From: Bacteroidia bacterium
GTDB lineage: Bacteria > Bacteroidota > Bacteroidia > NS11-12g > UBA9320
Assembly (NCBI GenBank): GCA_965216465.1
Contig: CBDCFW010000005.1
Location: 416,001 to 480,000, forward strand
Reading direction: 5' to 3'
DNA length: 64,000 bases
Shown: positions 3,129 to 16,038 of the stretch, piece after piece
How positions within the stretch are numbered: the stretch's first letter is position 1
How the letters are laid out: every line of letters begins with the position of its first letter
Program-made: the position numbers and the translations under genes
Notes under the pieces: generated by a model
What the model saw: only the letters and a program-made list of their open reading frames with translations
Databases searched by the model: none
What the model was told of the DNA's origin: nothing

Positions 3129-3172
3129 GAACTACTTCAACACCTCTCCCCCTCTTAATCGCTTAAATGCAT
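3129..3172. repeat. Direct repeat copy 2 (functional 3' end of mvaA)
   Basis: 41/44 identity to 1545-1588. Confidence 0.9.
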
Positions 3173-4457
3173 CTACCACTTCGGCGTGGTGCGGGGTGTT
3201 TTTAATGAAGTATTTAACAATGATTTGCTTTTCTTCTTCCGTTGCTTCAAGCTGATTGAGAATATTGAGCAAATGCATTTTCATATGACCTTGCTGAATT
3301 CCAGTAGTTGTAAGGCTTCTCAATGCAGAAAAGTTTTGTGCTAAACCAACTGTCGCGGTAATCTTCATCAAGTCTTCAGCACTTGGGTTCCCCAACATCT
3401 GGTGGGCAAATTTCACCATCGGGTGCAGTTTAGTTATTCCTCCAACCGTACCTAAGGCCAAAGGCACTTCAATATAAAATCTAAACTCACCATCACTCAA
3501 ATCAACATGGGTCAAACTTCCATAATGACCATCTTTCGTTGCATAAGCATGTGCACTGGCTTCAATAGCTCTGAAATCATTTCCTGTTGCCAAAATCACA
3601 GAGTCAATTCCATTCATCACCCCTTTGTTATGCGTTACAGCTCGATAAGGCTGAGTCTCGGCTATCTGCACCGCAGTCCTAAACCGTTTTGCAAACGCAT
3701 CCGGTTCAATATCGGTACCTTCGACCATCGCTGCAATTGGAGAGACCACCTCACTTCTTACTAAGCATTTAGGTGTGTAATTGCTCAAAATACACATCAC
3801 CACTTCAATTGCATTAGGATTTAAACTAGATTCTTGAACTTCTCGCCTCAACACATCAGCAAACTTCTCTAAACAAGTATTTATAAAATTTGCACCCATA
3901 CTATCACAGGTTTCAAACTCCGCTTCAAGTTGATAGTAGTTCTGAATATCGTTTGTTTTATCAACCAATGAAATCGATTCAATTCCACCTCCACGCTTAC
4001 GCATATTAGCTGTAATGCCTTCCGTTTCAGTATGAAATTTAGTCTCAATTTGTTTGAACAATTCAAATAACCCTACTTTATCAGTTCCCTCCCACATGAA
4101 GTGAACATGACCTATCTTGGTGGTACCGACAATAGAAGCTTGAAATCCACCCTTGTGATACCAGAAATTTGCAGCCTTTGCCGCCGCAGCTACAACTGAT
4201 GATTCTTCAATAGCCATCGGAACACAATAGTCTTGGCCATTGATTAAAAAATTAGGTGCAATTCCAAATGGAACATAGAAATTCGTGATGGTGTTCTCAA
4301 TAAACTCATCATGAAGTTTTTGAAGCTTTAAATCTTCATTCCAGTACTTTCTTAATGCTTCGACAGCTTCTGATGAACCGTCAAAATAATTTTGAATGAG
4401 CCACTCAATCTTGGCTTCTTTTGAGAGTTTCGAATACCCTTTAATGAACTTACTCAA
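3132..4457 (-). CDS. mvaA: Hydroxymethylglutaryl-CoA reductase, class II
   Basis: IENTI, PMAIEESSVVAA, DSMGAN, THNKGVMNG and GIQQGHMKMH motifs. Confidence 0.93.
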   Translation of the reverse strand: MSKFIKGYSKLSKEAKIEWLIQNYFDGSSEAVEALRKYWNEDLKLQKLHDEFIENTITNFYVPFGIAPNFLINGQDYCVPMAIEESSVVAAAAKAANFWYHKGGFQASIVGTTKIGHVHFMWEGTDKVGLFELFKQIETKFHTETEGITANMRKRGGGIESISLVDKTNDIQNYYQLEAEFETCDSMGANFINTCLEKFADVLRREVQESSLNPNAIEVVMCILSNYTPKCLVRSEVVSPIAAMVEGTDIEPDAFAKRFRTAVQIAETQPYRAVTHNKGVMNGIDSVILATGNDFRAIEASAHAYATKDGHYGSLTHVDLSDGEFRFYIEVPLALGTVGGITKLHPMVKFAHQMLGNPSAEDLMKITATVGLAQNFSALRSLTTTGIQQGHMKMHLLNILNQLEATEEEKQIIVKYFIKNTPHHAEVVDAFKRLRGGEVLK

Positions 4458-5485: not shown

Positions 5486-8338
5486 TTGGAATTAGATTAT
5501 TTAAATTGCAAAGCCATTAAAGCAATAAAACACATAGGGGGGTTAATTGTTTCCTTGCTCATCTTTGCATCGAGTTTTGCACAGCAACCACTTTACACGC
5601 AGTTAGGGAACAACCAAACACTCAACGGAGTCGAAATTTATGGAATGTCGCAAGACCGTTTGAAGAACATTTGGCTCACCACAAGTAATGGTCTATACAA
5701 ATACGACGGTGATGAATTTGAGAATATTAAGAATGAATCATTAATCACAAATGAGTTTTTTCAACCCTTCTTTACACCTTCAAACCGTTTTTACTTCACA
5801 GATATTTCAGGTGATATTTTTACCTTGAAAGACGATAAGATAACACCTTTTCTTCAACTATCAATTCGAGGTTTAGATTTGGATGGAGGCATGTTGGTGT
5901 CGGGCGAATACCTCTATGTAAAATCTAAAGACAGCCTTTTTCAAATAGACTCTAATGGAATCAAAGAGGCAATTTTTGGTTATAAATCGGCCTTTGCTGG
6001 AACACGAATAAAAATTCAAAAAGAGAGGTCAGAAATAACCATTTACACCAAAAATCACGCTGAAGAAATTTACATCAAAGGGAATGAAGTTAAAATTTCT
6101 AAAAACACGAAAAATCCCAATTATACAGCTGCACGACTCGAGCTACATGTAATAACTAATCACCACAACTTTCATGTAGAAAGCGATGCCATCAGATTCT
6201 CGAATCTTAATCATTTAGGGCCTTACATGGTCGATAAGTCCGGAAACCGATGGAAGGCTTTCAGGAATAAAAAAGGAGTGTTTTTAAAACGAAAGAATCA
6301 AGAACAAGAAAACCTCATTTTTGAGGAGTATAACATCAATTATATCTTCGAAGATGTTGACGACAACCTCTGGATTGGAACCCGAAATAATGGTATCTTT
6401 TTAGTCTCTGACCTTGAAGATTTCTCCTTTGCTCGAAGCTCAGAATTCCATGGAATATCGAGTGACGACCATCACGTATATGCCATTTCTCATAACCGAT
6501 TTCACGCCTTCGACAAAAGAACAATAAGCCAGTCGTCGGTCTATACACGAGCAACAAGCTCAAACCTTTATCTATTTAACAGCCCTGGTAAGGAGATGTA
6601 TAACTTTATCCAGACTAATAAGCATTATGTCATTTACAGAGGAACGGAAGAGATTGCACGACATCCTAGTCAAACATCGCTCATCAAAAATCATAAATGG
6701 GTCGATGATAGCACACTTATTGTTGCAACCGTAAGAGGGGCATACTTATTAAATCCGTTTACAAATACCCTATTAAGGCGATTAGGCGAATCGCAATGGC
6801 GTTGCTTGGATGTACAATGGGTATATGCCAAGCAGAAATACTTAATTGCAAGTGCACGAGGTCTAAAACTGCTTACAAAAAATGGAAAATTTGAACGCGA
6901 TATTTTACTTGCGGGAAGCCCTGTTTCAATTGAAAACCTTTTTGAAGTCAATGACAAAATATTTGGGATAGGACCTTCTGGAATTATTTATGATATTGAT
7001 GTTGACCACAGCACCATTTCTGAAATTGATCGCGTAGACATAAGTTTTTTGGTGATGTGTCGTCAGGTCGGAGATAATATTTTCATATTAGATAAGCACA
7101 ATGTTTATACCTACAACGTCTACACATCAACGCTAGGAAAGCTTCCAATTCTTTTACCTAACGATCTTACCCTTAGTGGAATAACAGTTAGCAATGATAA
7201 CATTTGGTTAAGTACAAGTAAGGGATTAGTAAAATTCGACCTCGAAAACTTTTCCAACCAAGTCCATGTTCCAGAGATTATGGTTGACATGTTTGAGGGG
7301 CACTTTTTATCTAAGGTTCAGAATAATTCTCGGTTCAAGTACAATAACAACAACCTATCGTTTAAGGTTAAAGTGCGCGATTATAAGTTTCAACGGTACA
7401 ATAGAATTCAATACCAATTGGTTGGTGCCGAACCGTTATTTACCGAAACAGCGTCAAGCGATTTAATTTCATATCGAGCTCTTTCTCCTGGTCATTACAC
7501 GTTTAGAGCAAAGGCCATTAACCCATTAGGAGCTGAAAGCGAAACCATTGAATACAAGTTTAGCATCAGTCATCCGTGGTGGTTAAAGTGGTGGTTTTAT
7601 GTCGCCCTTGCTGGGGTGATAGCAGCTATTTATGCCGCAGTGTACTATAGCAGTATAAAAAATAGAAGAGAACGTCGACGACTTAAAACGAGACTCCGAG
7701 AATCTCAAATTAACGCCATCATGGCACAAATGAATCCTCACTTCATATTCAATTGTTTAAACTCGATTCAGGATTTAATTTTACAAGAGGATATAAAAAG
7801 CAGCTACACCTATTTAGGGAAGTTTAGTGAGTTGACGCGAACAACCATGCAAGACAGTCAAAAGTCTGTAATTTCAATCAATCGAGAGTTAAACAACATA
7901 GGTTTATATCTTGAGTTAGAAGCACTTAGGTTTAAAGACTTAAATTATGAAATCATTAACACGCTTAGCGAAGAGCAATGTGAATTGTTTCATATACCTC
8001 CCATGCTCATTCAACCTTTTATAGAGAATGCGCTGAAGCATGGTCTCTTACACTCGAAGCAAAAAAAGAGGCTTGAGGTTGAAATTCAATACGACAAATC
8101 AGACTTAATAGTACAGATTAAAGACAATGGAGTTGGACGAGAGGAAGCAACTAAAATTAAAAAACGTCAAAGTAAGTATCGGTCATTCAGCGGAGGTGCC
8201 ATTGCAAAGCGCATTAGCTTGCTGAATTATCAAAAGGAGATGAAGATAAAACTTAAAACTGTTGATCACGTGAATGAAAATAAACTTGGATGGAGCACCA
8301 TTGTAGAGATACGATTTATTAATTTTACCTCCTATTAA
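5486..8338 (+). CDS. Sensor histidine kinase: periplasmic beta-propeller + Y_Y_Y domain, one TM helix, LytS-type His_kinase + HATPase
   Basis: QDRLKNIWLTT and EDVDDNLWIGT propeller repeats; YRALSPGHYTFRAKA; AQMNPHFIFNCLNSI; IPPMLIQPFIENALKHG; DNGVG; exact start uncertain. Confidence 0.9.
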   Translation: MELDYLNCKAIKAIKHIGGLIVSLLIFASSFAQQPLYTQLGNNQTLNGVEIYGMSQDRLKNIWLTTSNGLYKYDGDEFENIKNESLITNEFFQPFFTPSNRFYFTDISGDIFTLKDDKITPFLQLSIRGLDLDGGMLVSGEYLYVKSKDSLFQIDSNGIKEAIFGYKSAFAGTRIKIQKERSEITIYTKNHAEEIYIKGNEVKISKNTKNPNYTAARLELHVITNHHNFHVESDAIRFSNLNHLGPYMVDKSGNRWKAFRNKKGVFLKRKNQEQENLIFEEYNINYIFEDVDDNLWIGTRNNGIFLVSDLEDFSFARSSEFHGISSDDHHVYAISHNRFHAFDKRTISQSSVYTRATSSNLYLFNSPGKEMYNFIQTNKHYVIYRGTEEIARHPSQTSLIKNHKWVDDSTLIVATVRGAYLLNPFTNTLLRRLGESQWRCLDVQWVYAKQKYLIASARGLKLLTKNGKFERDILLAGSPVSIENLFEVNDKIFGIGPSGIIYDIDVDHSTISEIDRVDISFLVMCRQVGDNIFILDKHNVYTYNVYTSTLGKLPILLPNDLTLSGITVSNDNIWLSTSKGLVKFDLENFSNQVHVPEIMVDMFEGHFLSKVQNNSRFKYNNNNLSFKVKVRDYKFQRYNRIQYQLVGAEPLFTETASSDLISYRALSPGHYTFRAKAINPLGAESETIEYKFSISHPWWLKWWFYVALAGVIAAIYAAVYYSSIKNRRERRRLKTRLRESQINAIMAQMNPHFIFNCLNSIQDLILQEDIKSSYTYLGKFSELTRTTMQDSQKSVISINRELNNIGLYLELEALRFKDLNYEIINTLSEEQCELFHIPPMLIQPFIENALKHGLLHSKQKKRLEVEIQYDKSDLIVQIKDNGVGREEATKIKKRQSKYRSFSGGAIAKRISLLNYQKEMKIKLKTVDHVNENKLGWSTIVEIRFINFTSY

Positions 8339-8342
8339 GAAA

Positions 8343-9101
8343 GTGGAGAACATAAAAGCCATAATTGTTGACGATGAGGAAAGTTCAAGAAATATCTTAA
8401 GCAATATTCTCACAAAGTATGTTGAAGGAATTTATATTTTAGACAAATGTGCTGATGTTCCCAGTGCTGTAGATTCTGTTAAAAGAGAGAAGCCCGATGT
8501 TGTTTTTCTCGATATCGAAATGCCTAATTATAGTGGATTTGAGTTTCTCAACTTCTTCGACAAAATAGATTTTGAAATCATTTTTGTTTCGGCTTATGGC
8601 GAGTACGCTCTTAAGGCCTTTGATGTTTCGGCGGTCGATTATGTTTTAAAACCCATTCAAATCGAAAAAATACAAAACAGTATTGACAAGCTTCGAAACC
8701 GAATTCAATTGACCACAATGCAAGAACGATTTTCGGCACTTCAAGAAAATTTGAAGCAAGACAATGTTCATAAGCTAGCATTACCTATGTCGGATGGTCT
8801 TGTTTTTGTGAATACCAGCGAGATAATATTTCTTATAGCAGATGGCTCTTATACCAACATCTTTCTGCTCGATGGCACTAAATATTTAGTGAGCAAGAAA
8901 CTCAAGTTTTTTGAGCAGGCACTCTCCGACAACCGAAATTTCAAACGAGTACATCGTTCTTCGATGGTTAACCTTTCGCATGTTGTTAAATATCACAAAC
9001 ATGAAGGTGTATTAAGCTTTGGCAACAATGGCAACATTAAGGTTGCGAGAGACCGTAAATCAGGTATCGAGAACATACTGCACCAGTTTAGCGGACAATA
9101 A
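8343..9101 (+). CDS. LytTR-family DNA-binding response regulator
   Basis: Receiver motifs IVDDE, FLDIEMP, DYVLKP; LytTR-domain motifs ADGSYT and FKRVHRSSMVN; 4 bp after the kinase. Confidence 0.93.
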   Translation: MENIKAIIVDDEESSRNILSNILTKYVEGIYILDKCADVPSAVDSVKREKPDVVFLDIEMPNYSGFEFLNFFDKIDFEIIFVSAYGEYALKAFDVSAVDYVLKPIQIEKIQNSIDKLRNRIQLTTMQERFSALQENLKQDNVHKLALPMSDGLVFVNTSEIIFLIADGSYTNIFLLDGTKYLVSKKLKFFEQALSDNRNFKRVHRSSMVNLSHVVKYHKHEGVLSFGNNGNIKVARDRKSGIENILHQFSGQ

Positions 9102-9115
9102 ATCAGAATAAGTTT

Positions 9116-9147
9116 TACGGTTTATGGACTGAAAACTACCGTTTATG
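9116..9147 (+). promoter_or_regulatory. LytTR-type binding site (two direct repeats, 21-bp period)
   Basis: TACGGTTTATG (9116-9126) and TACCGTTTATG (9137-9147); the 9-mers ACGGTTTAT/ACCGTTTAT with a 12-bp spacer fit the LytTR consensus [TA][AC][CA]GTTN[AG][TG]. Confidence 0.75.
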
Positions 9148-9178
9148 AAACGAGCGGATAACCTCAACAAAGTCTTTC

Positions 9179-9186
9179 TATCTTTA
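9179..9186 (+). promoter_or_regulatory. Bacteroidota -7 promoter element variant (TATCTTTA) for the candidate sRNA
   Basis: 7/8 match to TAnnTTTG, about 30 bp downstream of the LytTR repeats. Confidence 0.55.
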
Positions 9187-9190
9187 CACT

Positions 9191-9341
9191 ATTGATGCGT
9201 ACACGTGAATTATATAACCCCTAATTCACGGCATGTTGACTAACCCCCAACATAAACCCCCACATGTATTGTACGGACCAATGAATTAAAATAATTACCT
9301 CAAATGAAGTTAAATCCCGCTCTGGCGGGATTTTTCATTTT
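9191..9341 (+). ncRNA. Candidate structured sRNA with repeated (U/A)AACCCC motifs
   Basis: Stem CGTGAATTA/TAATTCACG with loop TATAACCCC; stem ATGTTG/CAACAT with loop ACTAACCCC; third AAACCCCC; closing stems CGTACA/TGTACG and ATTG/CAAT; terminator at the 3' end. Confidence 0.65.
9312..9341 (+). terminator. Rho-independent terminator
   Basis: AAATCCCGC-TCTG-GCGGGATTT followed by TTCATTTT; may also serve the convergent DUF2797 gene. Confidence 0.85.
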
Positions 9342-9350
9342 CAAGTGCTT

Positions 9351-10169
9351 CTAAATAGATATTGACACGCGATATCCGCTGTGACTTCTTATGTTTATGA
9401 CTCTTCCACCGTCAAAGATTAAGTATTGACCCTTAATTCCTTCCAATCTTCCTTCAATAATTTTTTCTTTATCCAGCTTCATGCTCTTAACCTTATCAGG
9501 AAATTCAATAACAGGATATTTTATAGATACAATCTCATTTGAGTCTGATGCATAGTGACTCAATTCATCAGGAATATGACTCAACATTTTGGCTTTAATA
9601 TTGGTAATGTCATCATCCGTTTCGACTAGACCTTTTAACATACGTTGCCAGGCCGTTTTATCCGAAATATGAGCCTTAAGAGCAACTTCTATTTCTCCGG
9701 CTAGCTGGCGATAAGGTACTTCTGAGAGCACAATTGCCTGTGTAGCTCCTTGGTCAATCCAGCGATGAGGAATATTAGAATCACGGGTAACTCCAACTTT
9801 AAAATTGCTGGTTAAGGATATATACACCACATGCGGTTGAAGATGATGACGAACTTCCCACTCATAATCTCTCAATGCAATGCCTTCATGAATTCTACTG
9901 AGCTCCGGCCTCATAATGCTCGGGCTAGCTTGTGGACTTTCCATAAACTCCTTATACGTCATTCCCTCACCAAAGGCCTTCTTAATTTTTTCACCAGACA
10001 AGATTGAGTTGATATATCCTTCATATTCCAATTTTAATTCTTGGCCTACTAAGGCATTCATCTCAATTTTTTCGTATGGATCAAGCACGTCTCTCAAGTG
10101 CAAAGTATACTGTGCTTCACCGTCGACGAGATCGGTATCCATCTTCCTTAGATTTCCTTCTAATTGCAT
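9351..10169 (-). CDS. DUF2797 domain-containing protein
   Basis: EGNLRKM start; HLQPHVVY, KVGVTR, RWIDQGATQA and GIKGQYLIF motifs; ATG at 10169 preferred over TTG 10187. Confidence 0.8.
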   Translation of the reverse strand: MQLEGNLRKMDTDLVDGEAQYTLHLRDVLDPYEKIEMNALVGQELKLEYEGYINSILSGEKIKKAFGEGMTYKEFMESPQASPSIMRPELSRIHEGIALRDYEWEVRHHLQPHVVYISLTSNFKVGVTRDSNIPHRWIDQGATQAIVLSEVPYRQLAGEIEVALKAHISDKTAWQRMLKGLVETDDDITNIKAKMLSHIPDELSHYASDSNEIVSIKYPVIEFPDKVKSMKLDKEKIIEGRLEGIKGQYLIFDGGRVINIRSHSGYRVSISI

Positions 10170-10233
10170 TGCAGGTACAATATTCAAACATCCATGGTAA
10201 ATAGCAAAAAGAATAGAGTATTACATTTGTTTA

Positions 10234-12625: not shown

Positions 12626-12653
12626 AAAGCTCTCCTACTGGTGGGCTTTTTTT
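12626..12653 (+). terminator. Rho-independent terminator
   Basis: AAAGCTC...GGGCTTT hairpin plus T-run between convergent genes. Confidence 0.6.
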
Positions 12654-13158
12654 ATTTCTTGGGTGAAAGATTCTTTGCTATTCCACTTAAGATTAAGATG
12701 AAACCTAACGTAGACAAGCCTACAATCAGTAAGACATCCGCATAGGGCCAATGCATTATTTTAAACAACACTCCAACTACAAACATCCCAAGACAAACCC
12801 ACTTTATTGGTCTCAATAATTTAGGTTCTTTAATTTCGGACAAATAGTTCTTGGTGAATAAATGAAAGGCTATATAGGCTACTAATAGTGCTATTGAAAA
12901 TCCCACCTTGCCTATTGATTCAAGTGCATTGATTTGTGCCAGTACCAAACCTACAATCAGAAAGAGAAAAGGATAAACTATGCGCTCATCTTTGTCTTTT
13001 ACCAAGAGTGAGTACGCTAAATACGAAGCTACGTGCAACCAGAATCCACCGAACATCAGTTCTCTCCCATTGGTCCAATGCATCAAATTAAAAAGATATC
13101 CAAATACGGTTATGGCTAGCGAGGAATATATCGTTGTTATTAAGAATTTCTTCATCAA
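12652..13158 (-). CDS. Membrane protein with two GldL-N-terminal-like motifs
   Basis: GYLFNLMHWTNG and GVLFKIMHWPYA; about six hydrophobic helices. Confidence 0.6.
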   Translation of the reverse strand: MMKKFLITTIYSSLAITVFGYLFNLMHWTNGRELMFGGFWLHVASYLAYSLLVKDKDERIVYPFLFLIVGLVLAQINALESIGKVGFSIALLVAYIAFHLFTKNYLSEIKEPKLLRPIKWVCLGMFVVGVLFKIMHWPYADVLLIVGLSTLGFILILSGIAKNLSPKK

Positions 13159-14178: not shown

Positions 14179-16038
14179 TTATTCTACAATGATTTTTTCA
14201 CTGTAAATGTTCTCATCCTTTTCATTGAAGATTGAAAGGATGTAAAGCCCAGAACTTATTCCGTCGGCGTTAACCAAAAACTTCATTGGTCCTGCATTAA
14301 CTTCCAGATTATCCATTTCCTTTACTACGCTTCCTGCTAAATCTGAAATTTGTATTGTTACAACATCGTCATTTGGAAAAACTGCTCCAACTCGGAACAT
14401 TTCTGTAACTGGATTTGGATAGGTAACGAAGTCTTCAATGACAAAAAGGTCATTTTTGGCCTTCAATTTCGCAACCCATACATTATTGTAATTACGATCA
14501 TCTCCATAGCTGCCACAAACCCAAACTACACCCGGCTCGTTGTACTTTCTTTGCACATCAGTGTAATCTCCCCAACGTTCTATATCATTGTCTAGCCACG
14601 AATCAATAAGTCCAGTTCCTTCCTTAACTACAATCGGTTTAGAATAAAGACCTTCTTTGCCTGATGCTCTGTTTTGATAGATTGCAGAAGTTCCTGGAAA
14701 AGCAGTTTCACCAACGTGAGAGAAGGTTATCATCATCGAATGCTCATCATCACCGTCTATACCAGCAAATGCTATAGACGGATATGCATAATCAAGTGTA
14801 TCTGAAGATATAATTTCAGCATCAACGCTCGGATTCCCAGCAACATCAGATATCACTCCGTGAAATACTCCTGAGCTTAATTGTTCAGGCACCAAGGTCG
14901 ATTGAACATAGTGTATAGTGTTTCGGTGATACACTCCTGATAACACTCTGGTATCATTTGTTTGCAGTTTGTATCCAACCTCAGGTTGAAAAGCACTTGG
15001 TGGTACACCGTATTGTTTATTTGCTTTAAGAACAGATAACTCATGTTCAGCTTGACCAGATTTTGACGTATTGGTAATTTCATGCAAAAACAAGGTATCA
15101 TTGGCCATTGCATCTGGTCGCACAGAAAGAAAATACATGTTATCTTGATCAAAGTCTAAGGCTGGTTGAACCGGGCAAATACTCCATACGGGCTTGCCAC
15201 CATACTCAATATCATAAAATAAGTTTTGGGTTAACTCATCGCCATTGTACCCATCCTCTTTATTGATTTGCCAAATAAAACTCTGAACAAAACCTTCCTG
15301 CCAAGACTCATTGTCGCGAAGCAAGTTAACCGTTATATACAGGTCTTCTTGATTATGGGCTATAATCGGATAATCACTCCAGGTCTCTCCTCCGAGTGGC
15401 TTGCCGTCAATTGCATAAAAATTCCAGTTTCCTGTGGGGTCTGAAGTCTGCGAGAATCCTGTAACGATTCTGGTATCATTGCTGTTACTACCCTCAAGGA
15501 AAACCAAAATAAATCGATCATTGATTGGATCGTAAGTAACTTTTGGGTCGTAATAACGATCTAATAGACCCAGTTGCCCGCGTACAAATGCACCTAGTGT
15601 TCTGAACAATAGCAATTCGCCATCGCTGTCTAAAATGGTTATTGTCGTATTAATCGCGCTAATGATTATTCCATCATTGCTAATTGCCATGGTGTTGTCG
15701 TTTGGAATACCACTGCCACCAATCGGACGAGCGTTGAAACTATCTAACAATTCTGGATATACATCACTTTGTTCTGAGATGTACGATGTTTTGGCCTTGA
15801 ACTGAGCTTTACGTTTTCTTTTCGCATCCAGTTGTTTCTTAACCTCATGCGAACGCATTACGGGTTCTGGTGCAAGTTCTTCACCTTTTAATCGAACAAG
15901 ATCTAGGTCAACACTTTGTTCAGATAAGTTGACTGTCCATTGTTTATAGGTTTTAACGTTGGACATTTTTTTATAATCAACCTGACCAAATGTAAAGGTT
16001 GTAAAAGCAAGTATAGATAGCGTTAACAGTACTTTCAT
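14179..16038 (-). CDS. T9SS type A sorting domain-containing secreted protein
   Basis: Signal peptide; RWGDY motif; C-terminal YPNP...ISDLAG...SSGLYIL...KIIVE. Confidence 0.8.
   Translation of the reverse strand: MKVLLTLSILAFTTFTFGQVDYKKMSNVKTYKQWTVNLSEQSVDLDLVRLKGEELAPEPVMRSHEVKKQLDAKRKRKAQFKAKTSYISEQSDVYPELLDSFNARPIGGSGIPNDNTMAISNDGIIISAINTTITILDSDGELLLFRTLGAFVRGQLGLLDRYYDPKVTYDPINDRFILVFLEGSNSNDTRIVTGFSQTSDPTGNWNFYAIDGKPLGGETWSDYPIIAHNQEDLYITVNLLRDNESWQEGFVQSFIWQINKEDGYNGDELTQNLFYDIEYGGKPVWSICPVQPALDFDQDNMYFLSVRPDAMANDTLFLHEITNTSKSGQAEHELSVLKANKQYGVPPSAFQPEVGYKLQTNDTRVLSGVYHRNTIHYVQSTLVPEQLSSGVFHGVISDVAGNPSVDAEIISSDTLDYAYPSIAFAGIDGDDEHSMMITFSHVGETAFPGTSAIYQNRASGKEGLYSKPIVVKEGTGLIDSWLDNDIERWGDYTDVQRKYNEPGVVWVCGSYGDDRNYNNVWVAKLKAKNDLFVIEDFVTYPNPVTEMFRVGAVFPNDDVVTIQISDLAGSVVKEMDNLEVNAGPMKFLVNADGISSGLYILSIFNEKDENIYSEKIIVE

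Follow-up and report, generated by a model that had tools for sequence, protein, structure and literature searches.

Introduction

In terms of circuit logic, the described systems that appear closest to the locus discussed here are fasBCA-fasX of Streptococcus pyogenes and, next to it, agr P3-RNAIII of Staphylococcus aureus, and VirSR-VR-RNA of Clostridium perfringens follows the same logic. RNAIII is 514 nucleotides (nt) long, encodes delta-haemolysin and carries C-rich hairpin loops that pair with the start regions of its targets. It is transcribed divergently from the agr operon, and AgrA drives it from two direct repeats just upstream of its promoter (available part of PMC4227749). In the fas system, the promoter of the adjacent fasX gene is the only place where FasA is proposed to act, and FasX covers the ribosome-binding sites of adhesin and pilus mRNAs, which leads to their repression (excerpts of PMC12675982). 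Here we analysed a 64,000-nt stretch of DNA of a Bacteroidia bacterium (the window, in a genome labelled G000), in which the 249-nt gap between a LytTR-type response regulator gene and a convergent DUF2797 gene is filled by an element that an initial annotation had described as a multi-branch RNA presenting the motif UAACCCC in two hairpin loops. We propose, with a probability of roughly 55%, that positions 9191-9340 of the plus strand specify a regulator-activated, base-pairing small RNA. This RNA would be the direct, and probably the only, transcriptional output of the adjacent kinase/LytTR pair.

The likeness to the fas system is an analogy read from the sequence of the G000 locus only. As in the part of PMC12675982 that describes fasBCA-fasX, a putative small RNA gene with a regulator site upstream comes directly after the genes of one or more kinases and of a ComE/LytTR-type regulator, on their strand, and the RNA would be the main or only output, the single perfect site of G000 lying at the RNA promoter. 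Moreover, as for FasX, the candidate target mRNA encodes a secreted or surface protein and is predicted to be covered at its AUG. Unlike fasX, to which it is homologous in neither sequence nor structure, the element has no Rfam match at the gathering score, belongs to another phylum, follows one propeller-sensor kinase rather than two, and lies in an organism that does not use Shine-Dalgarno sequences. With agr P3-RNAIII it shares a LytTR regulator and two direct repeats before the promoter of an effector RNA. The G000 RNA is, however, only ~150 nt long, has no conserved open reading frame (ORF) and lies downstream on the same strand, and its C-runs would pair with a G-rich leader instead of a Shine-Dalgarno site.

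Two further comparisons concern the RNA itself. Rfp18 of Flavobacterium psychrophilum has one stem-loop that is predicted to pair with the mRNAs of secreted metalloproteases and an adhesin (excerpts of PMC9723704); it is likewise a small RNA of this phylum with predicted secreted-protein targets, a likeness by description only, whereas the part of that source describing Rfp18 makes no two-component link. The sponge RNAs CsrB and RsmY also repeat a short motif in exposed loops, but here the motif is UAACCC(C) and not GGA, it occurs in three copies only, and the genome lacks CsrA. The literature records retrieved on LytTR regulators together with small RNAs in Bacteroid*/Flavobacterium describe, within the text they offer, no such module and no targets of the regulators. 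Taken as a whole, the element appears to represent a new RNA family of narrow distribution; its regulatory logic is known, but has not been described in this phylum.

The kinase/regulator operon and its direct repeats

Upstream of the element lie a sensor histidine kinase gene (5486-8338, plus strand, 950 amino acids (aa); Pfam Reg_prop, Y_Y_Y, His_kinase PF06580 of the LytS type and HATPase_c) and a response regulator gene (8343-9101, plus strand, 252 aa; Pfam Response_reg 1.2e-21 and LytTR 1.1e-14). The nearest NCBIfam models of the regulator are BtsR and LytR, both under their cut-offs. Since the kinase gene stops 4 nt before the regulator gene, the two probably form one operon. The sensor of the kinase is large, extracytoplasmic and of the propeller type, with no peptide-receptor membrane domain.

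The most informative feature of the locus, which the initial annotation had missed, is the combination of LytTR-type direct repeats with this adjacent two-component system. A repeat search identified a distal repeat, TACGGTTTATGGA (9116-9128, plus strand), which is kept in the relatives G008 and G024 of the same genus and which we propose as the first half-site of the regulator, and a proximal repeat, TACCGTTTATGAA (9137-9149, plus strand), also evident in the sequence, as the second. The two copies of an 11-nt core (repeats of 11-13 nt) start 21 nt apart, beginning 15 nt past the stop codon of the regulator gene. LytTR sites generally consist of two direct (or inverted) repeats of 9-11 nt with 11-13 nt between them (accessible text of PMC4847170), and the pair at 9116-9149 has this architecture. 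The repeat centres lie ~48 and ~69 nt upstream of the inferred transcription start, that is, just upstream of the core promoter, as LytTR sites do; for comparison, the proximal AgrA repeat is centred near -60 (PMC4227749, in part). In the mechanism we envisage, a dimer of the phosphorylated regulator would bind the direct repeats at 9116-9128 and 9137-9149.

The pattern ACNGTTYATGRA-N9-ACNGTTYATGAA has a single perfect match in the 3.2-Mb (3.23-Mb) genome, and this match is at the RNA promoter. One further match with 3 mismatches (C1:128774) lies inside a coding region and was taken as chance, and the reversed control gave 0. When 185,579 species were scanned, each through one genome and with the last half-site relaxed to ATGRA, 22 loci were returned, which by eye comprised 8 tandem arrays, 2 loci of neither type (L055 and L058) and 12 isolated two-copy sites. 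A LytTR domain was present within the scanned DNA of nine of these 12 sites, and at all six Bacteroidota loci among the nine this domain was closest to that of the window's regulator (44-50% identity), as judged among the seven LytTR domains of G000 that were used as queries. With up to one mismatch allowed, 401 sampled genomes of the class yielded matches in 5 genomes against 1 control match, all of them before protein genes. At 4/4 class-level loci the repeats are followed, 65-69 nt on, by the start of a long signal-peptide ORF, and two of the four (Chitinophaga-type) have a LytTR regulator gene with the repeats directly behind it, as in G000. The repeats thus track the subfamily of this regulator across the class, and elsewhere they would drive an adjacent secreted-protein gene. 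The LytTR regulator gene of the window, which ends 15 nt upstream of the site and whose kind co-occurs with the site elsewhere, is consistent with being its cognate regulator.

In other Bacteroidota the same two-repeat site precedes signal-peptide genes at L047/L128, L127, L053/L129, L130, L060, L046, L050 and L084, with an orthologous LytTR regulator beside most of this set; the distance of 65-69 nt was measured for L127-L130. Judging by their N-terminal sequences, the proteins behind these sites look like secreted proteins of the LamG or SBBP type. The exact repeat pattern also occurs in intergenic regions of Firmicutes, namely at L042, L049 and L051 (Oceanobacillus) and at L044 and L056 (Bacillaceae), and at the three Oceanobacillus loci a LytTR gene lies ~1.4 kb from it.

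Promoter and terminator

Downstream of the repeats, a -7 box of the Bacteroidota sigma-A type, TATCTTTA (9179-9186, plus strand), begins 29 nt past repeat 2 and differs by one mismatch from TAnnTTTG; no -33 element is visible. The consensus box TAnnTTTG occupies -12 to -5 (PMC9723704, in the portion available), and by this rule the box at 9179-9186 would place +1 at 9191, the first base of the outer stem. The initial annotation had guessed the start at this position, and the predicted +1 agrees with it. The regulator would recruit RNA polymerase to this promoter, and the transcript would begin at ~9191 and end at the terminator at 9312-9340.

This intrinsic terminator, found on the plus strand by the terminator scan (2 sites, one per strand, against 0.4 expected), has a GC-rich 9-bp stem, AAATCCCGC/GCGGGATTT, with a 4-nt loop, followed by TTCATTTTC, and is common to the RNA and the convergent DUF2797 gene. 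Since no gene follows on the plus strand, the element is not a leader but a self-contained unit of ~150 nt (9191-9340, from the inferred start to the U-run of the terminator), and very probably an independent small non-coding RNA. In our view the element is real and probably functional.

Alternatively, the element might have arisen by chance or be a feature of the DNA itself, such as a G-rich opposite strand. It would then lie within the 3' untranslated region of the kinase/regulator operon and lack its own promoter. Read-through transcripts would include it anyway, as there is no terminator between the regulator stop (9101) and the element; other C-run/TAACCC arrays exist in the genome (C5:714750 and C5:16133); and a sigma-70 promoter scan, which does not cover Bacteroidota promoters, found none. 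Nonetheless, the repeat pattern, which elsewhere tracks with the regulator subfamily, has its only perfect copy in G000 here, and the spacing from repeat 2 to the -7 box is kept in three genomes (29 nt in G000, 30 nt in G008 and 28 nt in G024) while the intervening sequence is not. Furthermore, the opposite strand has only three G-runs, too few for an intramolecular quadruplex. We consider this explanation very unlikely.

Sequence and fold of the element

The strings and positions that the initial annotation had given for the hairpins, loops and closing stems are all exact in the sequence, and the multi-branch structure it proposed is the minimum free energy fold of RNAfold, with the terminator hairpin in addition. 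All parts lie on the plus strand. Hairpin 1 (9204-9230) has a 9-bp stem, CGTGAATTA (9204-9212) with TAATTCACG (9222-9230), around a 9-nt loop at 9213-9221 (TATAACCCC as DNA, entered as UAUAACCCC in our feature list), and hairpin 2 (9233-9253) has a 6-bp stem, ATGTTG (9233-9238) with CAACAT (9248-9253), around a 9-nt loop at 9239-9247 (ACTAACCCC as DNA, ACUAACCCC in the feature list). A third C-rich motif, AAACCCCC (9254-9261), is left unpaired in the multiloop. The branches are enclosed by an inner closing stem, CGTACA (9198-9203) with TGTACG (9270-9275), and an outer closing stem, ATTG (9191-9194) with CAAT (9279-9282). All three C-rich motifs, those of the two 9-nt loops and that of the multiloop, are therefore predicted to be exposed in the RNA, with mean probabilities of being unpaired of 1.0, 1.0 and 0.92.

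In RNAfold, the segment 9188-9345 of the plus strand reaches -39.5 kcal/mol (z -5.03), with 0/200 dinucleotide shuffles as stable, and the branch domain alone (9191-9285) reaches -20.9 kcal/mol (z -3.30), again with 0/200 shuffles as stable; the fold of the minus strand is less exceptional (z -2.90, 1/200 shuffles). Clusters of three runs of at least four C within 70 nt are rare, with 20 on both strands of the 3.23-Mb genome, six of them fully and one partly non-coding. The heptamer TAACCCC itself is not over-represented genome-wide (149 and 99 per strand against ~128 expected).

The initial annotation had proposed an Rfam search as a check of novelty, and this gave 0 matches at the gathering score in the 64-kb window, using a release of 4227 models in which the presence of the RNAIII, RsaE and RsmY/CsrB models was not checked. 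The best sub-threshold match in a relaxed search was STnc180, at 17.5 bits where 50 are needed (E = 0.47), and the G008 and G024 loci likewise gave 0 Rfam matches.

Two other C-rich regions of G000, both outside the window, show that TAACCC-type arrays recur in the non-coding DNA of this genome. One, at C5:16133-16200 (minus strand), consists of tandem copies of a 13-nt unit, TAACCCGTATTAT, that degenerate to TTACCCC; it follows directly after the stop codon of a 369-aa gene and lies between convergent genes. At C5:714610-715080 (L091:2711-3181), a 471-nt intergenic region on the same strand follows a second kinase/LytTR pair, whose kinase has TPR and HisKA_2 domains, and carries UUAACCCCC-UAACCCCC-UAACCCCC-UAACCUCC...UAACCCC...GACCCCC, which amounts to five runs of at least four C, with stop codons across the 8-nt repeat in all frames of both strands. 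We do not claim the latter region as a sibling RNA, since it has no direct repeats and is not conserved in the genus; it may be the long leader of a downstream gene of the beta-lactamase family or another C-rich RNA.

Conservation in the genus

The closest orthologues of the regulator within the genus are in G008 (57% identity) and G024 (56%). Both genomes keep the same order of regulator, repeats, -7-like box, short RNA, terminator and convergent DUF2797 gene, the last of which (9351-10187 in the window, minus strand, 278 aa; Pfam 2.9e-77) is thus the neighbour in all three RNA-carrying genomes. The relationship is hardly visible by sequence search: BLAST of the intergenic region against 60 relatives gave only terminator-sized matches (query 156-189), in three genomes, and G000 itself holds no second copy of the element. 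In G014, a regulator of 50% identity is followed by a gene that, by eye from its translated start, is YceI-like, with no repeats and no RNA.

The RNAs of G008 and G024 are ~90 nt long and consist of an unstructured 5' end of ~30 nt with UUAACCCU and UGACCCCG, one hairpin whose loop and 3' arm read UUAAACCUCC, and the terminator. Their C-rich motifs sit in the unstructured 5' end, unlike those in the loops of G000. These RNAs fold differently, and the multi-branch fold is consequently not conserved. The initial annotation had argued that two different stems presenting the same loop point to selection on structure; this argument is not supported by G008 and G024, the only homologous loci found. 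What the three genomes do share, in a MAFFT alignment, are the invariant blocks TAACCC and TAAACC.CCA, which correspond to the three C-rich motifs in the same order.

When G008 and G024 are compared, no segment of the locus is better conserved than the RNA body, at 91.4% identity (53/58). The terminator follows with 82.9%, the DUF2797 gene with 81.0%, the repeats with 78.8% and the regulator gene with 76.5%, down to 54.3% in the DNA after the terminator and 43.3% in the promoter spacer. The probability of at least 53 identities in 58 positions is 0.025 at the rate of the DUF2797 gene and 1.6e-9 if non-coding DNA is assigned a rate of 55%. This excess of identity over the flanks is the best evidence of selection on the sequence of the RNA itself.

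The locus might also be a small-protein gene. The initial annotation had listed two mini-ORFs, MRTRELYNP (9195-9224) and MLTNPQHKPPHVLYGPMN (9233-9289), and both exist and translate as it wrote. In LytTR systems of Firmicutes the adjacent gene under control often encodes a peptide pheromone, and one of these micro-peptides could be the signal of the LytTR system, as in Gram-positive quorum sensing; moreover, the first ATG lies so close to the predicted start (4 nt) that the message could conceivably be leaderless. However, the mini-ORFs are wholly different between the three genomes: the ATG that G008 and G024 share opens 13 codons in G008 (MTPNLIGVLNLQF) and more than 40 codons through the terminator in G024, and neither peptide is like those of G000. 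Thus, between G008 and G024 the nucleotides are kept but not the end of the reading frame. In addition, the peptides show no leader or signal-like features, and the kinase has its propeller-type sensor in place of a peptide-receptor membrane domain. With no ORF conserved, the element appears to be non-coding, and a peptide product seems to us highly improbable.

A candidate target

We favour the reading that the RNA acts in trans, and its C-rich motifs would then base pair with G-rich leaders. For the duplex scan, a 60-nt C-rich core was compared with 2622 start regions, defined by crude gene starts (the longest ATG ORFs of at least 100 aa). The best duplex of all 2622, at -44.0 kcal/mol, was with a 321-aa gene at C5:726683-727648 (minus strand; hereafter C5:727648), and the next reached -37.8 kcal/mol. 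The predicted duplex has 34 pairs and spans -39 to +9 of the mRNA. Its 12-nt perfect core is formed by 9241-9252 (UAACCCCCAACA), within loop 2 and its 3' arm, which would pair with -24 to -13; in a second block 9256-9262, within motif 3, is predicted to pair with -35 to -29, and 9231-9236 to cover the AUG. In this in silico model, loop 2, its 3' arm and motif 3 would together occupy -35 to -13 of the leader, with the 5' arm of hairpin 2 lying over the AUG and so blocking initiation.

None of 60 shuffled RNAs reached -44 kcal/mol on 168 G-rich start regions (mean best -34.0, standard deviation 2.6, minimum -41.0), and 0/1000 shuffles did so on the C5:727648 leader (mean -23.6, standard deviation 3.7). 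This leader is located downstream of a perfect TATATTTG -7 box. By eye, the encoded protein starts with a signal peptide; it also gives a weak G8 match and a sub-threshold match to a sorting domain of the type IX secretion system (T9SS), at 18.9 bits against a cut-off of 23, and orthologous genes are found in G008 and G024 (43% and 41% identity to it). Positions 9231-9267 of the window resemble the antisense of -39 to +4 of C5:727648. The initial annotation had offered, as one option, a small RNA seeding on GGGGUUA targets: one specific candidate target has emerged, but a general enrichment at start regions has not.

Two related ideas were dropped. A kissing hairpin in the C5:727648 leader was abandoned since this leader is not significantly structured (z 0.11). 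Additionally, GGGGUUAUA, a perfect nine-base complement of loop 1, occurs in the leader (~-30) of C3:68869-72006 (minus strand); with ~0.8 chance matches expected it was not counted. The latter gene lies outside the window and encodes a 1045-aa signal-peptide protein whose N-terminus resembles that of the main candidate (M..TTT...).

Weighing of the evidence

Several points weigh against a regulator-activated, base-pairing small RNA. While promoter, terminator and synteny can be read from the DNA, the binding of the regulator, the pairing, and the transcript with its 5' and 3' ends are deduced from these signals. The duplex search relied on crude start calls and on duplexfold, which ignores intramolecular structure. 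GGGGTTA is not enriched at the 2622 start regions, with 7 sense against 8 antisense occurrences, and its count is unremarkable among 105 permutations of its letters. Composition accounts for much of the duplex energy, given that shuffled or reversed C-rich cores come to between -33.6 and -40.1 kcal/mol when run against all start regions. The RNAs of G008 and G024 pair with the leaders of their own orthologues no better than shuffles do (fractions 0.76 and 0.21), which means that C5:727648 is either a lineage-specific target or the wrong one. The multi-branch fold is not common to the two relatives either. Finally, the spread of the unit is narrow. It was found in 3/191 genomes of the order (at up to two mismatches these gave 12 matches against 5 in the reversed control, and no new RNA unit), no further unit was found in the 401 sampled class genomes at up to one mismatch, and among the pattern matches in the 185,579 species genomes only the two loci already known from synteny, L040 (= G008) and L057 (= G024), carry the RNA. 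Metagenome contigs searched with the exact pattern gave 29 loci and no further RNA unit. The other exact-pattern loci are mostly tandem arrays or sites before protein genes.

A related point is that the ATG of the G008 and G024 units is located 61 nt after the repeats, compared with 65-69 nt for the protein genes elsewhere, so that the unit could descend from, or be, the stub of a protein gene. Under this explanation a secreted-protein gene was lost and its promoter, leader and terminator remained, and the transcript would have little or no function or would only insulate or interfere with the DUF2797 gene. The signal-peptide ORFs at all four class-level loci, with several exact-pattern loci alike, fit this architecture, as does the presence of the RNA unit in so few genomes of the order. 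The 5' end of the G024 RNA also has a same-sense 16-nt match upstream of a secreted-protein start, at a near-chance E of 0.14. A stub is, however, hard to square with the conservation in G008 and G024: the repeats and the spacing to the -7 box are kept at 56-57% regulator identity, and the RNA body is the most conserved part of their locus while nearby non-coding DNA falls to 43-54%. Besides, the stability of the G000 RNA is out of the ordinary (z -3.3 to -5.0), and this RNA has specific complementarity to the start region of another gene. We therefore judge a stub unlikely.

The match just mentioned is one of a pair. Same-sense matches to the AACCCTTAAATAATG-like 5' end of the RNA of G008 and G024 lie just upstream of two different secreted-protein gene starts, at L119 (G024:C71) and L124 (G008:C156), with E of 0.14 and 1.4, near chance. 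As these same-sense matches of 16-19 nt of the G024 RNA are at chance level, they were rejected as evidence; if the recurrence is real, it would suggest that the 5' end of the RNA derives from or mimics a translation start region.

The lack of enrichment of the complementary heptamer at starts, together with a predicted pairing that is not conserved, would also suit a protein sponge or decoy, in which the exposed UAACCC(C) motifs titrate an RNA-binding protein, for example of the RRM or KH type. Among KH domains, some bind single-stranded C-rich sequence. By exposing one motif three times the RNA looks like a sponge, the motifs rather than the stems are common to G000 and the two relatives, and the genome, which is scored 100% complete, encodes two RRM_1 proteins. 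Nonetheless, three motifs are few, the motif is not GGA, and neither CsrA nor Hfq was found in this genome. The only similarity to RsmY is a match of 12.5 bits (gathering score 57) that touches just the terminator, on the minus strand, and the element does not show the features of a CsrA-type sponge. We know of no protein in the phylum with such a UAACCC(C) specificity, which also counts against a sponge, and the 34-bp complementarity to one leader exceeds what the motif itself provides (0/1000 shuffles). A sponge is in our opinion quite unlikely, and a base-pairing small RNA under the control of the adjacent regulator remains the reading we prefer.

Neighbouring genes and other repeats

The window contains an HMG-CoA reductase gene upstream of the kinase (3132-4457, minus strand), an ORF with a GldL_N domain (12652-13158, minus strand) and a gene for a T9SS-sorted protein of 619 aa with a Por_Secre_tail domain (14179-16038, minus strand); no link between the RNA and these three neighbours is evident. 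The gliding and T9SS domains (GldL_N and Por_Secre_tail) agree with the initial annotation in pointing to Bacteroidota. Outside the window, identical stretches lie inverted and ~10 kb apart at C6:962202-962253 (minus strand) and C6:972041-972092 (plus strand), over 82 nt, a longer stretch having been read for the second copy only. The examined copy directly precedes a gene that begins MKVFYSRISTDEGQTHKRQ and resembles that of a serine recombinase; the two stretches may bound a mobile element or belong to an invertible segment.

Implications

Bacteroidota do not use Shine-Dalgarno sequences (PMC6847099, in part). LytTR regulators are common in environmental members of this phylum, and its post-transcriptional control is poorly charted. 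To our knowledge, it is a phylum without Hfq, ProQ and CsrA. For one regulator subfamily, so far uncharacterised, the locus offers a candidate recognition sequence, ACNGTTYATGRA with a 21-nt period, which in turn predicts that secreted-protein genes next to such sites in Chitinophaga- and Flavobacterium-like genomes form a regulon. It also offers a candidate circuit outside the Firmicutes, leading from a sensor through a regulator and one small RNA to surface proteins, for which a concrete RNA-mRNA pair is predicted. As a narrow family of three species so far, it matters as a principle rather than as a widespread element.

In its boldest form, the proposal would make this the first Bacteroidota two-component system whose sole direct output is a trans-acting small RNA. 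Such an RNA would have been born at a promoter that drives a secreted-protein gene in other lineages, with G000 gaining an inverted copy of the start region of another gene, and a sensor kinase would thereby control the translation of a surface or T9SS-type protein without Hfq, CsrA or Shine-Dalgarno pairing. We put this forward tentatively and hold it to be possible but doubtful. If it is true, the fast turnover of the RNA body under a fixed promoter, as seen between G000 and G008/G024, would show how effector RNAs get rewired.

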